Origin: a virus
Taxonomy: Duplodnaviria > Heunggongvirae > Uroviricota > Caudoviricetes
Length of the DNA stretch: 64,000 nucleotides
Strand: one strand, 5' to 3'
Virus record (IMG/VR): IMGVR_UViG_3300045996_002451
Location: 1-64,000 of that record
Shown here: positions 14,006 to 40,384 of the stretch, in pieces
How the letters are laid out: every line of letters begins with the position of its first letter
How positions within the stretch are numbered: the stretch's first letter is position 1
The notes under the pieces: model-generated
The model's database searches: none
What the model was told of the DNA's origin: nothing
What the model saw: only the letters and a program-made list of their open reading frames with translations
Program-made: the position numbers and the translations under genes

Positions 14006-14080
14006 GGGCTCCTACGGGAATCGAACCCGTATCTTCCGCTTGATTAGGGCTGGATGTACTGGCCGTTGTACTAAAGAGCC
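14006..14080 (-). tRNA. tRNA-like gene with non-canonical anticodon arm (undetermined)
   Basis: GGCTCTT/AGGAGCC acceptor, GTAC D-stem, ACGGG-TTCGATT-CCCGT T-arm; anticodon arm TCC(A)GC-CCTAATCAA-GCGGA (bulge plus 9-nt loop). Confidence 0.75.
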
Positions 14081-32091: not shown

Positions 32092-33675
32092 TTAGGCAAC
32101 GGGCAGTTCTTCGAGGCGATGACCATACTGCGCGTGTAGCCAGCGAAGTCCCGTCTCAGTATCACTGAAGTCACCGTTGAGCTGCGCTTCGTAGGCTGCC
32201 GCCACCGCTTCTCCGATGTGGGGACCGCCCTTGTACTCGAAGTAAGGCATCACGTGCCGTCCGAGTACCAGTTTGGCGGGCGGCTCGTAGTAGACGTTCA
32301 GCTTTTCGGCTAGCTCCAGCATGAAGAACGCGGCTACCGGCATCCCGGTTGGCAGCGGCGGTCGACCGCTGGCGTCTGCTTCCATCAGCCACGCAAGCAT
32401 CTGGATGTTGGCCGGAGCCAGGCGCTTGGCCAGACGACGCACCACTGTCTCTGGTCGATCGCTGTTCAGGATGTCCCGGTGGGCCAGGTGATCCTCAACC
32501 AATGGTACTACCTGCGCGGTGATCTGCGGATGCATCTTGGTGATCCCGATCCGGTCCAGGAACCGCTGGGCGATGGGACCGCCTGCGCGTTCATGCCCGT
32601 GACTGGTCCAGCGCAGCTTGCCCTTTTTCTCCAGTTGCGCGGTGACTACCGGCTTGGCGAAGTCGTGACAGAGGGCGGAAAACACGAGTACCGCCCTGGC
32701 TTCGGGTTCCAACTTTTCGCGGATAGCGATGTTGTTGGCCGCATCCACGACGTACCGGGTGTGCCGGTAGACATCCCCTTCGGGATGCCACTCCGGGTCT
32801 TGTGGGCACCCATACATCCGGCGCAGTTCTGGGTAGAAAACGTCCCAGAGCGTGCTGGACAAGAACTCCAGTCCGAGGGAAGGACGGGTGCTCTTGGTGG
32901 CCCACTTCAGCCATTCTTCCGCTACTCGTTCCCGAGAGACACAGCGCCCTTTGTCGGTGAGTCGACTGAGGGCGAGGTAGTCGCCGGTGGCACGGTAGAA
33001 GTTGCGCCCGTGCCAGGTCTTTAACTCCGGGTATGCTCCCAGTTCCGGATCCGGCGCATCCTCGCGATACCGCTGGCGGATCTGGATGCCCAGGTTGTTG
33101 AGCAGATCCTCGGTCTGCACCTCGACGTCCCAACCAAAGCGGGAAACGAACTGCATCCCGCGTAGGGCCCGTAGTGGATCGTCCGCGAAGAGGTTCATGT
33201 CTACTGCACGCAGCAGGCCTTGCTGGATGTCTTCGACCCCGTCAAAGAAGTCGAGTAGCTCTCCGGTGAGAGGATCAAACAGGAGCGCGTTACACGTGTA
33301 ATCGCGCCGCCGACAGGCTTCGCTAGGAAGCATCTGAGGATCGTACTCGACTACATAGTCGTGGCGGGTCGGATCGTTGCCCTGCCTGCTGTCTTTACGC
33401 GGTAGGCTGACGTCGTAGGTGGCGCCGTCCACGCGCCACTTGAGGACACCAAAGCTGGAACCTTCCAGTTGGACGGAGCCGGGCTGCTGTTCCAGAAGGT
33501 CCTGAAGAGCTGGAAAAGGGAGGCCGTAGACCTCGACGTCGATGTCCTTGGGTTCGAGTCCTAGGAGGGCGTCGCGGACACAGCCTCCGACCAGGTAGCC
33601 CTGAAGGCCTCTAGCCTTCAGGTCCAGTAGGAACTTCCGGAGTTGGGACGTCACCGGGATCTTTAGGGTCTGCAT
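32092..33675 (-). CDS. cca: tRNA nucleotidyltransferase (CCA-adding/poly(A) polymerase family) with HD domain
   Basis: LVGGCVRD, DIDVE, RRDYTCNAL, DDPLRALR, HPEGDVYRHT, CHDFAK. Confidence 0.9.
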   Translation of the reverse strand: MQTLKIPVTSQLRKFLLDLKARGLQGYLVGGCVRDALLGLEPKDIDVEVYGLPFPALQDLLEQQPGSVQLEGSSFGVLKWRVDGATYDVSLPRKDSRQGNDPTRHDYVVEYDPQMLPSEACRRRDYTCNALLFDPLTGELLDFFDGVEDIQQGLLRAVDMNLFADDPLRALRGMQFVSRFGWDVEVQTEDLLNNLGIQIRQRYREDAPDPELGAYPELKTWHGRNFYRATGDYLALSRLTDKGRCVSRERVAEEWLKWATKSTRPSLGLEFLSSTLWDVFYPELRRMYGCPQDPEWHPEGDVYRHTRYVVDAANNIAIREKLEPEARAVLVFSALCHDFAKPVVTAQLEKKGKLRWTSHGHERAGGPIAQRFLDRIGITKMHPQITAQVVPLVEDHLAHRDILNSDRPETVVRRLAKRLAPANIQMLAWLMEADASGRPPLPTGMPVAAFFMLELAEKLNVYYEPPAKLVLGRHVMPYFEYKGGPHIGEAVAAAYEAQLNGDFSDTETGLRWLHAQYGHRLEELPVA

Positions 33676-35011: not shown

Positions 35012-35059
35012 AAAAAGGCGACCCTGAAGAAGACCGGAGTCTCCCTCAAGGTCGCCCTT
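35012..35059 (-). terminator. intrinsic terminator after Ro60 gene
   Basis: AAGGCGACC...GGTCGCCTT plus T-run. Confidence 0.65.
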
Positions 35060-36802: not shown

Positions 36803-36864
36803 TGCACACTCTCTTTCGGCCCGTTTACGGGCGTTACACGTGTATCACACGTCATACAACACTA

Positions 36865-37019
36865 CAGGGGAGGTAGGAGTCGAACCTACACGACACACTG
36901 CCAAGTCGTTATCTCAACAGTAGCAGACGGGAAAGCTAACGACACTCGACCGTACTGCTTATTACCGTGTCTGACCCAGGGTTGGTCCACTGGCGCTCTG
37001 ACCATTAAGCTACTCCCCT
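36865..37019 (-). ncRNA. tRNA-like RNA with ~80-nt insert in variable-arm position (possible Y module)
   Basis: AGGGGAG/CTCCCCT acceptor, canonical D and T arms; insert GACAC...GGTCGAGTGTCGTTA...TAACGACTTGGC...GTGTC. Confidence 0.7.
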
Positions 37020-37143
37020 AAGAAACCATGTCCGGGGTAGGACTCTCACCTATTTGATTTCAAGCAAGAACGGGTGGCCACCCGTCTTCCTGCCCTCTCC
37101 GACTATACGGTCCCGAACTCTACCGAGCTGTTTCCAGCTCAAC

Positions 37144-37221
37144 TCAACGTAGGGGGAGTTGAACACCCCGACCTCAATCACGGTTTCCGTGACTGCGCTC
37201 TTACCCCTGAGCTATACGCCG
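37144..37221 (-). ncRNA. tRNA mimic, anticodon loop replaced by long hairpin
   Basis: CGGCGTA/TACGTTG, GCTC D-stem, CAGTCACGG-AAA-CCGTGATTG, TTCAACT T-loop. Confidence 0.75.
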
Positions 37222-37258
37222 TGCTTAACTTAGTGGTCTCCACTGAGTTAAGGGGGGC

Positions 37259-37331
37259 CGATCGTGGTAGGAGTTGAACCTACGACCTCCAGGTGTACAT
37301 CCTGGCGCTCTACCAACTGAGCTACACGATC
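37259..37331 (-). tRNA. atypical tRNA, GTA anticodon (Tyr-like; short variable loop, A32, C37)
   Basis: full cloverleaf GATCGTG/CACGATC, CCAGG-ATGTACA-CCTGG; no encoded CCA. Confidence 0.7.
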
Positions 37332-37335
37332 GACA

Positions 37336-37404
37336 TTAGGACAGGCAAGTTGATTGAAGTGGGGAGTTCATGCGAGATAACCCACCTCATTCGGCCCGTC
37401 TTAA
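37336..37404 (-). ncRNA. short Y RNA-like (Ro60-binding helix)
   Basis: GACGGGCCGAATG...GGGTTATC...ACTTGCCTGTC, bulged C. Confidence 0.75.
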
Positions 37405-37408
37405 AAGT

Positions 37409-37786
37409 TTACTGGGTTGTGAAGCGGCAGTTGCTTTTACGCGTATGCTCCTTCAAGTTGACCTTGATCGGGCAGCGCTTGGAGTTCAAGCGTGCCAGGA
37501 TGTGTCCCTCGTGCGGGTTGTAGTAGTGCAGCGGTGGATAGTCCCAGATCGCAACCTCAGTCTTGCTCCAGTCCATCACGAAGCTGCGCTCGGCAAAGCC
37601 CCAGATGACGCCATGGTTGTCCCGTTTGAGCAGCACGTAGCGGCGCCAGCGGGGGATCGGGATCTTTTCTGAAGACAGGGCACGTTGGACGCCCCGCTTA
37701 TTGAACGGACTACCCCCGGTGACATCAGTGCCTGTGTTCCACATGGCGCGTTGGATGCGCGCGCGTTTGGTGGTCAGTTTAGGCAT
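37409..37786 (-). CDS. basic hypothetical protein inside RNA cluster
   Basis: AAGGAGG RBS, 125 aa, K/R-rich. Confidence 0.7.
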   Translation of the reverse strand: MPKLTTKRARIQRAMWNTGTDVTGGSPFNKRGVQRALSSEKIPIPRWRRYVLLKRDNHGVIWGFAERSFVMDWSKTEVAIWDYPPLHYYNPHEGHILARLNSKRCPIKVNLKEHTRKSNCRFTTQ

Positions 37787-37810
37787 GACAGCCTCCTTGG
37801 GGTAAATGTT

Positions 37811-37941
37811 GCGGCCTGCGGGAATCTAACCCACACTCGTTAGGTGTACTGCGCTTACTCGCTTGCTTGAACATCCCGTCTGGAATGGCGTGAAGGAAGA
37901 CGGGCCTACCAGGTCTGCACTGAAGCGCACATAGAGGCCGC
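37811..37941 (-). ncRNA. tRNA-like-domain RNA (acceptor + T-arm, ~105-nt body)
   Basis: GCGGCCT/AGGCCGC and GTGGG-TTAGATT-CCCGC; no canonical D arm. Confidence 0.5.
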
Positions 37942-38092
37942 TTAGTCCGCACGAATGAGTCCCCGTGCCATACGGCAACTCAGTCATTGTACCAAGCGGT
38001 GATCTCTAGACAGGGACCTCGGACGATTTGCAGTCGCCCTCTTAGCCTGTGCTACCAACTCTGCTCTCGGGCCGCACGAAATTGTTTGACTA

Positions 38093-38236
38093 CGCCAGGG
38101 GATGGACTCGAACCACCGACCCGTAGTGTATGGTAACCTTCAAACGCCGACCCCGACCAGGGTAGTTAGCCCTCGCTGAGATAAGTGTGTAAGAAGACAT
38201 GTTGGACTGCTGCTCTACCAACTGAGCTACCCTGGC
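38093..38236 (-). ncRNA. tRNA with circularly permuted Y module in anticodon arm
   Basis: GCCAGGG/CCCTGGC, canonical D and T arms; insert TCTTC..ACTTATCTC-hairpin-GGGGTCGG..GAAGGTTACC. Confidence 0.7.
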
Positions 38237-38242
38237 AAGGGA

Positions 38243-38309
38243 GTCCGGGCAAGTGGTTGCGGCGAGGGGTGTTACTTGAAAGGGTAACCCTCATTGCTCC
38301 GGCCCGAAC
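38243..38309 (-). ncRNA. short Y RNA-like
   Basis: GTTCGGGCCGGAG...GGGTTACC...ACTTGCCCGGAC. Confidence 0.75.
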
Positions 38310-38315
38310 AAAAAC

Positions 38316-38434
38316 TTTGAAGAGGACAAGGGAGTTAACCTCGACTGAAACGGCCACCAAGGCAGCGCCCGACTCGAACGGGCTTCGTCTTGTTTTGTAA
38401 GCAAGATAACCGAAGTCATCCGGCCCTCTTCAAA
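38316..38434 (-). ncRNA. YrlA-like Y RNA (T-arm plus acceptor-like hairpin)
   Basis: TTTGAAGAGGGCCGGATG..GGTTATC..GCCCG-TTCGAGT-CGGGC..GCTGCC-TT-GGTGGC..CTTGTCCTCTTCAAA. Confidence 0.75.
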
Positions 38435-38516
38435 TGAAGGTGGTTGCTGCGACCTGCCTAGCGGTATCCCCACCGGTATGGAGATATGGTTCCGCGGTCT
38501 GCGCTCTCACCACCAG

Positions 38517-38615
38517 GATACACCGTGGGACTCGAACCCACCCGTATGACACTTTTCAGGTCATCGCCGTCCCTGGTTCTTCACCAGGCGCTCTGCCAAC
38601 TGAGCTACGTGCATC
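38517..38615 (-). ncRNA. atypical tRNA-like RNA (loop TGAAGAA, G33; long variable region)
   Basis: D arm GCTCAGTTGGCAGAGC, CCTGG/CCAGG stem, GTGGG-TTCGAGT-CCCAC. Confidence 0.7.
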
Positions 38616-38734
38616 ACACCAACTATTTAGTTGTAAGGGAGGCAGGGAACATCAGCTAGTCGCGCTTTGCTGACTCTTCTAGGGGCTTTGTATCTGTACG
38701 TCTACTCGGGTAACCATCCCCTTACACCTGCCAA

Positions 38735-38806
38735 GCTGCAACGTGGGACTCGGACCCACACAAACCAAGCGTACTTAGTTGCTCTACCAGTTAAGCTAGT
38801 TGCAGC
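38735..38806 (-). ncRNA. tRNA mimic with UACG tetraloop instead of anticodon loop
   Basis: GCTGCAAC/GTTGCAGC, ACTAAG-TACG-CTTGGT, T-loop TCCGAGT. Confidence 0.75.
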
Positions 38807-38851
38807 TCTCTGAAAACTGAAAGGACTCTCACCCACTCAGTTGCCAGAAAA

Positions 38852-39163
38852 TCAGTCGGACCAGGTAATCTGGGCGTCATCCCAGCGCACGTTGTACTCG
38901 ACCGGGGAGACGGTGGGCCACTCGCCGACCCAGAGGATCTGAGTCTGCTCTTCGGAAGGCCCGTCGGAGTAAGCCGAGAACTCCTGTCCAGTCTGGGGAC
39001 CCGTCAGGTTCTGCGCCGTGGTGAACCCGGTCCACGGATCGTAGGACCGCACCGCGCACGTTTCTACTGTGGTCGCAGTGGGTTCCGCGCGGCTCTGGGT
39101 GCCTGGAAAAAGAAGACTGGCTGCGAGGGCCAGGATCAGGGCGAACAGTACTGGGAACTTCAT
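38852..39163 (-). CDS. putative secreted protein
   Basis: signal peptide MKFPVLFALILALAASLL...SRA; GGAGG RBS. Confidence 0.7.
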   Translation of the reverse strand: MKFPVLFALILALAASLLFPGTQSRAEPTATTVETCAVRSYDPWTGFTTAQNLTGPQTGQEFSAYSDGPSEEQTQILWVGEWPTVSPVEYNVRWDDAQITWSD

Positions 39164-39552: not shown

Positions 39553-39625
39553 GAGCGGGAGAGGGACTTGAACCCTCAGTCTTTGGGTTATGAGCCCAAC
39601 GTTTTACCAATTACACTATCCCGCA
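39553..39625 (-). tRNA. tRNA-Met(CAT), initiator-like
   Basis: unpaired 1:72, TTGGG-CTCATAA-CCCAA with three consecutive G-C pairs; no encoded CCA. Confidence 0.88.
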
Positions 39626-40248: not shown

Positions 40249-40384
40249 TAGATGGACAAGGAGTTTTTGTTTGGGGGTTAGGTGGGACTCGAACCCACAA
40301 CCTCCGGGCTATGCACCCGGCGCTCTACCGATTGAGCTACTCGTGCAGTGTGAGCGCGATAACCCAAACAACACGGCCCATCTA
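40249..40384 (-). ncRNA. Y RNA whose effector domain is a D-anticodon-T tRNA body attached at the acceptor end
   Basis: TAGATGGGCCG..TTGTTTGGGTTATC..D arm..CCGGG-TGCATAG-CCCGG..T arm..CCCAAACAA..CTTGTCCATCTA. Confidence 0.8.

Follow-up and report, generated by a model that had tools for sequence, protein, structure and literature searches.

Free-standing tRNA-shaped elements with closed or altered anticodon loops beside the Ro60 gene of a phage

Introduction

Why should a phage place tRNA-shaped RNAs with closed or altered anticodon arms directly beside its gene for Ro60? From bacteria to humans, Ro60 is conserved together with its Y RNAs, and the imitation of tRNA by the Y RNAs of bacteria and phages still calls for an explanation. 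The question is raised here by four elements in a 64,000-nt stretch of phage DNA (the window; positions 1-64,000 of the 211,171-bp IMG/VR record IMGVR_UViG_3300045996_002451, which is estimated to be 98% complete), referred to below by their lowest coordinates as 37144, 37259, 38517 and 38734. All four lie within an RNA array of approximately 4 kb on the minus strand, directly 5' of the phage gene for Ro60/Rsr (rsr) and 0.3-2.0 kb from it on the same strand; the array otherwise holds Y-RNA hairpins, tRNA bodies with Ro60-binding helices and two small open reading frames (ORFs). The original prediction, made from the letters of the DNA, described the elements as non-decoding tRNA mimics that act as decoys or as punctuation for RNase P and RNase Z. 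This interpretation is supported in part, and the Ro60/Rsr and Y-RNA context that it lacked proves decisive.

YrlA RNAs, a class of Y RNA whose genes lie next to rsr in more than 250 bacteria and phages, carry an effector domain that mimics tRNA, with an elbow and a closed acceptor stem and without an anticodon loop (PMC4201824; bioRxiv 10.1101/312249). In Mycobacterium smegmatis YrlA is cut by RNase P and gains CCA, and YrlA and YrlB derive from one precursor 5' of rsr (PMC4201824); Thermus phage phiLo provides a characterized Ro60 with upstream Y-like RNAs (PMC12135203). Ro60-linked tRNA mimicry is thus represented in the literature by YrlA, and as far as we have found not in a free-standing form. 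Here we argue that the four elements are likely to be functional, non-decoding and tied to the Ro60 system.

Results

The four elements

The positions, minus-strand orientation and cloverleaf form proposed for the four elements are borne out, in varying combination, by Rfam, ARAGORN, the folds and R1, a tRNA covariance model made from 32 phage tRNAs and used for tRNA-model matches that ARAGORN leaves uncalled (Table 1). As predicted, the anticodon arm of 37144 is a 9-bp stem (37195-37187 with 37183-37175), fully paired and 4 nt above normal length, which is closed by an AAA triloop (37186-37184); its 7-bp acceptor stem is fully paired, its D arm is GCUC/GAGC and one U is bulged in its T stem. 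In 38734, which the original prediction began at 38735, the arm is a 7-bp stem with the expected UACG tetraloop at 38773-38770. Its T loop (UCCGAGU) has C in place of U55, Rfam gives it only 20.8 bits, as tRNA-Sec, and when it is folded with flanking sequence the acceptor helix can be extended to 10 bp. Since a loop of three or four nucleotides cannot present an anticodon, 37144 and 38734 should be non-decoding. Both of these capped elements take the cloverleaf as their minimum-energy fold, with z-scores against shuffled sequences as given in Table 1.

The other two elements retain 7-nt loops. The G33 and long variable region read earlier in 38517 are confirmed: a 5-bp anticodon stem carries the loop UGAAGAA, with G33 at 38582 and AAG (A34) as the triplet, and the 30-nt variable region forms a hairpin of its own; the element further has a G-G opposition at 7:66 and a G-1:C73 pair, the latter being carried by 38734 as well. 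The loop of 37259, AUGUACA, consists of A32, U33, GUA and C37 (37295) and stands, as had been described, on a body without a long variable arm, a 73-nt class-I body with a 5-nt variable loop, G73 and C-1 that is otherwise flawless. The earlier claim that the elements are non-decoding is therefore well supported for the two capped elements and plausible only for 37259 and 38517. The undetermined or pseudogene calls anticipated from gene finders were obtained for 38734, but 37259 was called as an identifiable tRNA and 38517 went uncalled at default settings.

All four elements possess the tRNA core, that is a 7-bp acceptor stem, D and T arms and an elbow comprising U8, A14, G18, G19, G53, U54, U55, C56, A58 and C61, and in the model alignment 43 of 44 universal core positions are kept across them. 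Each lacks a canonical anticodon arm (5-bp stem, 7-nt loop, U33, purine 37). Changes affect one of the 44 core positions against six of eight anticodon-loop positions, a contrast beyond chance (Fisher p = 9e-6) but with a value inflated because the elements were found through their tRNA core. Nearly all stem positions are paired, and the near-perfect acceptor, D and T arms that had been claimed hold broadly, subject to three defects in the four elements combined: the one bulge in 37144, the one core change (C55) in 38734 and the one mismatch (G-G) in 38517. The uncompensated stem mutations and scattered core loss that characterize tRNA pseudogenes were not found in these elements. With stems intact or compensated, anticodon stems lengthened and capped, and comparable shapes recurring beside rsr elsewhere, the pattern indeed looks unlike random decay. 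As tRNA-like domains without an anticodon loop, 37144 and 38734 qualify in full, 37259 and 38517 only partly.

The folds reveal no Ro60-binding helix with a GNCGAA-type motif, and no enclosing helix, in or around the four elements, whereas the neighbouring RNAs do have it; RF02553 and RF00019 give no match on any of the four, even at E <= 10. Lacking both, the elements do not pass as Y RNAs and we read them as free tRNA-shaped modules. An origin from the phage's own tRNAs was considered and rejected, BLAST of the four elements against 41 tRNAs returning only shared words of the D and T arms; the exception in this comparison was the ordinary tRNA-Met at 39553, which is 89% identical over 46 nt to a tRNA-Met at position 75788 of the genome. 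The GCUC/GAGC D stem was likewise dismissed as a YrlA-like signature, its occurrence in five of eight elements of the locus against 11 of 37 ordinary tRNAs being too weak.

Two further traits had been put forward as special. None of the elements encodes CCA, but the same is true of 34 of the 37 ordinary tRNAs in the main array of the phage, so that this is a property of the genome and not distinctive. A Watson-Crick -1:73 pair is present in three of the four, as had been noticed, yet 64 of 155 ordinary tRNAs from related loci have one too, and the trait was set aside as background. Single-base changes of the anticodon loop are common in relatives: among 729 ARAGORN tRNAs of related arrays (L003-L182; such handles denote surveyed loci), 107 (15%) have a base other than U33, nearly always C33, while 19 have a pyrimidine at 37 and two have G33. 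The single-base oddities of 38517 and 37259 are consequently weaker evidence than the capped loops, and G33 or C37 by itself is no proof of lost decoding. As a tRNA-Tyr(GUA), 37259 nevertheless deviates from all 24 examples in related arrays, which are class II, 81-92 nt long and have purine 37. Elsewhere in these arrays a tRNA-Asp(GUC) with the loop CUGUCUA (U37) recurs in at least nine loci.

Setting in the phage genome

The main tRNA set of the phage lies on the plus strand at 71-81 kb of the genome and comprises 37 ordinary tRNAs, all of them with U33, a purine at 37 and a normal anticodon loop, together with a transfer-messenger RNA (tmRNA). It includes a class-II tRNA-Tyr(GUA) at genome 73824-73902 and four tRNA-Leu genes. 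With such a set elsewhere, the four elements are not needed for decoding. A scan of the whole 211-kb genome for tRNA bodies found no aberrant free-standing tRNA shapes outside the rsr locus. Several other features of these regions may be recorded. The tmRNA (genome 71452-71910, plus strand, predicted tag GREPTALLTQV) lies just 5' of the main array; a tRNA body with a loop-closed Ro60-binding helix lies inside that array, between tRNA-Ala and tRNA-Lys and approximately 40 kb from rsr (genome 78085-78206, plus strand); and a solitary tRNA far from both arrays (14006-14080, minus strand) is called as Ile(AAU) with A34, its anticodon arm aligning to the tRNA model only through a local gap, with a stem that looks irregular.

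Within the window ARAGORN calls four tRNA genes, three of them at 37.2-39.7 kb on the minus strand and one of these 'tRNA-???'. Additional matches to the Rfam tRNA model fall in this stretch, several of them interrupted by long insertions, as do Y-RNA-type matches at 37335-37403 and 38242-38311. The tRNA shapes flank other RNAs at spacings of 3-40 nt, and all would belong to a single transcript. Consensus scans of the array find no sigma-70-like promoter and no terminator-like hairpin of more than 11 pairs; directly after rsr they find a terminator-like hairpin of 20 bp that bears a T tract (35015-35058, minus strand). This layout of promoters and terminators fits one long precursor transcript from which the array and rsr would be expressed together. 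A single soil DNA run contained exact, low-coverage fragments of the same phage, in which no variation was seen.

Recurrence of capped shapes in relatives

Rsr-based searches yielded 100 viral or metagenome loci and 80 loci from genome bins, which were surveyed with a home-made scanner and the tRNA model, so that all surveyed arrays are rsr-linked. In this clade rsr typically lies in or beside large tRNA arrays (28 tRNAs in L005; 563 ARAGORN tRNAs in the 80 genome loci). Bodies of tRNA in which a Ro60-binding helix serves as the anticodon arm are widespread: the first 100 loci contain 38, spread over 28 loci, and the 80 genome loci contain 81, spread over 44. Loops of three, four or six bases on tRNA bodies were found in L051 (two), L054, L070, L071, L088, L093, L094 and L101, and in L077 a 6-bp stem bears a GUA triloop which ARAGORN miscalls as tRNA-Tyr; the genome-bin set contributed L144 and L174. 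In the 100-locus set all capped shapes lie within 1.6 kb of rsr, as against 65 of 166 ordinary tRNAs (p of approximately 5e-4 counting loci). The free-standing form with a 7-bp acceptor stem that is seen in the window is also found in L071 and L088, while in L077 and L144 the acceptor end is enclosed by a Y helix. The caps vary in sequence (AAA, UACG, GAAA, GUA, GUC, UAUA) and have only their shortness in common, so that the shared trait is the absence of a loop and not a motif.

Three candidates (L013 1720-1785, L039 5610 and L005 6766) proved to be parts of tRNA-form Y RNAs and were discarded as false positives. An R1 scan near the Ro-like genes of Sinorhizobium phage Phosso and Gordonia phage Sixama found no free capped tRNA shape, and a DNA search of the phage collection returned generic tRNA matches only. 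The contigs L103-L182, binned as Armatimonadota, Myxococcota, Chloroflexota and Actinomycetota metagenome-assembled genomes, carry rsr of approximately 50% identity in dense tRNA arrays (699 tRNA-model matches in 555 kb) and look like phage or prophage DNA rather than host chromosome. In three rsr-linked shapes the anticodon arm is tipped by GUA, as triloops in L077 (5875-5948) and L051 (4366-4434) and within the 7-nt, C37-containing loop of 37259-37331; its recurrence may reflect a tRNA-Tyr theme or be coincidental. Of 45 ordinary tRNAs within 1 kb of rsr, seven are tRNA-Met(CAU), more than of any other kind (L045, L059, L071, L076, L080, L095/L096 and, in the window, 39553-39625); a CAU loop, with G33, is also present at 40280-40341.

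Neighbouring RNAs and genes

The features of the locus are collected in Table 1. The tRNA body of 40250-40383 presents CAU with G33 in the loop UGCAUAG; tRNA-Met 39553-39625 is the sole fully ordinary tRNA of the rsr array. The Y hairpin 37335-37403 ends 3 nt from 37259, or 10 nt from it if the helix alone is counted (ending at 37342), and the second hairpin, 38242-38311, stops 5 nt before the tRNA-framed RNA 38093-38236. A linkage of the CCA-adding enzyme or the small ORFs to rsr in relatives was rejected, tblastn giving one weak match to the enzyme and none to the ORFs.

Table 1. Elements, neighbouring RNAs and genes of the rsr locus (window positions; the four tRNA shapes first, then the remainder in order of the minus strand)
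Feature	Position	Strand	Evidence
tRNA shape, AAA cap	37144-37221	-	Rfam tRNA 31 bits; R1 34.3 bits; minimum free energy (MFE) cloverleaf z = -2.73
tRNA shape, UACG cap	38734-38806	-	ARAGORN 'tRNA-???'; R1 41.5 bits; MFE cloverleaf z = -2.93
tRNA shape, G33	38517-38614	-	Rfam tRNA 32.3 bits; R1 32.5 bits; uncalled by default ARAGORN
tRNA shape, GUA and C37	37259-37331	-	ARAGORN tRNA-Tyr; Rfam 67.6 bits
Y helix continuous with acceptor end of tRNA body	40250-40383	-	Rfam tRNA 45.3 bits, model positions 6-65 only; fold
Other structured RNAs	down to 39636	-	array map
tRNA-Met (CAU), normal loop, GGG/CCC anticodon stem	39553-39625	-	ARAGORN; Rfam 62.4 bits
tRNA body, anticodon arm replaced by loop-closed Ro60-binding helix	39222-39341	-	fold; R1 44.4 bits
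ORF of 103 amino acids, GGAGG site, hydrophobic N-terminus, no family match	38852-39163	-	ORF and family search
119-nt spacer RNA between tRNA shapes 38734 and 38517	38615-38733	-	array map
Y RNA; end helix GAAGAGGGCCGG.../...CUUGUCCUCUUC around T-arm-like hairpin	38316-38434	-	fold; R1 15.4 bits, partial
Second small Y-RNA hairpin	38242-38311	-	Rfam ceN72-3 21.8 bits; fold z = -2.2
tRNA-form Y RNA, anticodon arm replaced by 94-nt arm with Y-helix motifs	38093-38236	-	Rfam tRNA 42.1 bits, 77-nt insert; scan
265-nt RNA framed by GCGGCC/GGCCGC end stem and T-like arm	37811-38075	-	fold; T-loop match 37821-37831
ORF of 125 amino acids, GGAGG ribosome-binding site, no family match	37409-37786	-	ORF and family search
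Small Y-RNA hairpin GGGCCGAAUG...GGGUUAUC...CUUGCCUGUCC	37335-37403	-	Rfam sbRNA ceN72-3 41.6 bits (cut-off 38), Y_RNA 26.4 bits; z = -4.3
Hairpin of ~12 bp, one bulge, between tRNA shapes 37259 and 37144	37224-37252	-	read from sequence
Another Y-like RNA	37025-37140	-	array map
tRNA body, 105-nt insert between D and T arms; last RNA before rsr leader	36865-37019	-	Rfam tRNA 41.1 bits; scan
rsr leader	36803-36864	-	array map
Ro60/Rsr gene, 574 amino acids	35078-36802	-	Pfam TROVE 2e-45, vWA_Ro60 2e-56; PHROG 850 RNA-binding protein
tRNA nucleotidyltransferase (CCA-adding type, HD domain), ~1.4 kb 3' of rsr	32092-33675	-	Pfam PolyA_pol and HD; PHROG 2244

Three observations concern other parts of the array. 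The spacer 38615-38733 contains GGCAGG-UGUAAGGG...GGUUACC upstream and CCUGCC-UCCCUUACA downstream, two complementary pairs whose crossing order would allow a pseudoknot or competing helices. In the rsr leader, a short hairpin continues through its 3' arm into a GGNCCG(A/U)A motif that closely precedes the ribosome-binding site (CGCCCG-UAAA-CGGGCCGAAAG in the window, GUCCGC-ACUUCC-GCGGACCGUAAC in L005); the hairpin also occurs at ~240-289 of L004, ~6950-7000 of L005 and ~1300-1344 of L014, and as its motif is that of the 5' strand of the Ro60-binding helix, Rsr may bind the leader of its own mRNA. The motif GGUGAGAGUCCU is found twice in the array on the minus strand (37036-37057 and 38817-38838) and at six places genome-wide with no more than one mismatch, too few for a general promoter; as a candidate promoter or processing motif, GGTGAGAGTCC was rejected on the same count of only six genome-wide matches at no more than one mismatch.

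Discussion

The tRNA core retained by the four elements, their anticodon arms and their place among Y RNAs lead us to favour, on balance, a reading in which they are non-decoding tRNA-shaped modules of a Ro60/Y-RNA operon that would act mainly as processing handles for RNase P and RNase Z and would not be spare tRNAs. One long minus-strand precursor would run from approximately 40.4 kb to the terminator at 35.0 kb, and each tRNA shape would offer the determinants recognized by host RNase P and RNase Z, namely the stack of acceptor and T arm and the elbow formed by the D and T loops (no phage-encoded RNase P RNA was found). Excision of the tRNA shapes would fix the ends of the Y RNAs and small mRNAs next to them, and the released RNAs of approximately 75-95 nt may receive CCA from the phage nucleotidyltransferase; with anticodon arms that are closed (AAA, UACG) or altered (G33, C37) they would read no codons. 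Co-transcription, cleavage, addition of CCA and any role after release are steps that we infer. The idea of punctuation, already contained in the original prediction, fits the layout of the locus, in which a Y hairpin ends next to 37259 and neither promoter nor terminator matches intervene. Of the possible roles, a processing handle appears best supported by the anatomy, given the retained RNase P and RNase Z determinants, the position between RNAs that need ends and the CCA-adding enzyme nearby. This specific role is put forward tentatively, and more broadly the elements most likely serve the Ro60/Y-RNA system either as cutting marks or as tRNA dummies.

Several points weigh against processing handles. 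Ordinary tRNAs are equally good cutting marks, so that the handle role alone leaves closure of the loop unexplained; closure makes sense if the released RNAs are to avoid translation and anticodon-directed nucleases, or if they act as dummies for tRNA-binding factors. The 10-bp acceptor helix predicted for 38734 may shift or hinder cleavage by RNase P, and early decay could account for the bulged T stem, C55 and the G-G mismatch. The contrast between core and loop comes from a test that is biased by the discovery of the elements through their tRNA core. Capped shapes are sporadic, at approximately ten in the 100 viral or metagenome loci and two or three in the 80 genome loci, and in several relatives their acceptor stems are weak, poor or only 4 bp long. 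At some loci, L003 among them, Y RNAs occur without a tRNA-like element next to them, so that punctuation is not required for the production of Y RNAs. Finally, the Rsr-based searches found no relative above approximately 55% protein identity.

The alternative that survives best, possible if somewhat unlikely, is that the elements are free tRNA dummies, having an elbow like that of the YrlA tRNA-like domain without a Ro60-binding helix, which after release would titrate a tRNA-recognizing factor. Their target could be a host defence nuclease that cleaves tRNA or the elbow-binding partner proposed for YrlA; the 7-nt GUA and AAG loops would then be anticodon loops that are uncleavable or poorly cleavable. 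An effector that binds the elbow has been proposed on the ground that YrlA RNAs conserve the D and T stems but lack an anticodon loop (bioRxiv 10.1101/312249), and capped arms also on tRNA bodies clearly within Y RNAs (L077, L144) make the closed arm a recurring design of the Ro60/Y-RNA system. The heavy variation of anticodon loops in related arrays resembles a pattern that has been tied to escape from tRNA-targeting defences (PMC10264068), and phage tRNAs are able to counter retron effectors that degrade tRNA (PMC11555353). Dummies have no known target, however, an RNA that has no anticodon loop makes poor bait for anticodon-recognizing nucleases, and the capped elements are sporadic across relatives. 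The general form of this proposal, in which free, anticodon-less tRNA dummies form a distinct component of the Ro60/Y-RNA system of Ro60 phages, processed by the host and occupying host factors that recognize tRNA, seems to us doubtful; such loop-less dummies would go unseen by the ribosome and by nucleases directed at the anticodon. A role for the dummies as cofactors of RNA ligation, along the lines of the b7a-tRNA idea, was rejected for want of a partner, since neither RtcB nor an Rnl2-type ligase was found in the phage.

Processing handles must also be weighed against the view, which we regard as unlikely, that the elements are functionless relics, either decaying tRNA genes of an ancestral rsr array or tRNA-form Y RNAs that have lost the Ro60-binding arm by internal deletion. 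The large arrays of normal tRNAs that surround rsr in relatives would provide the source of such genes, and with a working array elsewhere in the phage the copies next to rsr would be redundant. A long Y arm would be reduced by internal deletion to a short capped stem, and the arms of 37144 and 38093-38236 both begin with CAGUC; the small defects of the elements and the sporadic, heterogeneous occurrence of capped shapes point in the same direction. Yet nearly all stem pairs are intact, including capped stems of 9 and 7 bp that are perfect and would be lost from unselected sequence. The changes are focused in the anticodon loop, subject to the caveat of ascertainment, the elements lie close-packed against other RNAs in a phage genome of the compact kind, and similar shapes arise independently beside rsr in other phages of the 100-locus set, always within 1.6 kb.

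It is improbable that 37259 (GUA) and 38517 (AAG) are working tRNAs whose loops have been altered to escape host anticodon nucleases, even though loop mutations have been proposed as such an escape route (PMC10264068), 37259 scores very well against the tRNA model and non-U33 and pyrimidine-37 loops are frequent in related arrays on tRNAs that appear functional. A class-II tRNA-Tyr(GUA) and four tRNA-Leu genes are already available to the phage. Moreover 37259 lacks the long variable arm present in the tRNA-Tyr of all its relatives and has G73 where the phage's own tRNA-Tyr has A73, while G33 is rare even in related arrays and in 38517 is accompanied by the 30-nt variable region, A34 and an acceptor mismatch.

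The closest known system is YrlA (RF02553), with which the elements share a position adjacent to rsr, a tRNA-like arrangement of acceptor, D and T arms with the elbow nucleotides, and the lack of a usable anticodon loop. YrlA differs in that its 5' and 3' ends pair into a Ro60-binding helix, its acceptor stem is closed by a loop and its T arm precedes the D arm, whereas the four elements have free tRNA-like ends, the normal order of arms and no Ro60-binding motif. A parallel for the proposed processing role is mascRNA, which in the account given in bioRxiv 10.1101/312249 is a tRNA-shaped, non-decoding element directly 3' of a non-coding RNA, MALAT1, where a cut by RNase P would form the 3' end of the upstream RNA and release a small tRNA-like RNA; that account concerns a eukaryotic nuclear system in which cleavage is demonstrated, while in the phage it is presumed. 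The b7a-tRNA, known to us from a secondary description (bioRxiv 10.1101/312249), is a predicted tRNA-like RNA beside Band-7/RtcB repair genes and occasionally Rsr; as there described it resembles the elements in being free-standing, closely tRNA-like and linked to RNA-repair or Ro60 loci, but the adjacency to Band-7 and RtcB is missing here, the phage having no RtcB and its two Band-7 genes lying at 198-200 kb of the genome, approximately 160 kb from the rsr locus. In phage tRNAs that escape tRNA-targeting defences the differences from host tRNAs are likewise focused in the anticodon loop, but those tRNAs still decode and two of the four elements have no anticodon loop (PMC10264068; PMC11555353).

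Stable small RNAs made together with tRNAs are also familiar from phage T4, whose species 1 and 2, of unknown function, are co-transcribed with the tRNAs and cut from the tRNA-cluster precursor by tRNA-processing enzymes. The likeness lies in small size and origin, and these RNAs are not known to be linked to Ro60.

The finding is thus one of Ro60-associated tRNA mimicry in free-standing form, and its interpretation is sharper once the Ro60 context is added. At this locus the tRNA-like module appears in every arrangement, joined to a Ro60-binding helix through either its anticodon side or its acceptor side, or free-standing with a closed loop. Because the free-standing forms part the tRNA shape from the Ro60 handle, they offer a direct route to asking what the shape itself contributes, be it a processing signal, a protective fold or a bait. 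Approximately 350 cultured phages of Mycobacterium, Streptomyces and Gordonia encode Ro-like proteins, which opens related loci to experiment. If the elements are cutting marks only, they would show tRNA punctuation being used to build a multi-RNA operon in a phage; if they are decoys, they would be an RNA-based addition to the counter-measures of phages against tRNA-targeting defences.

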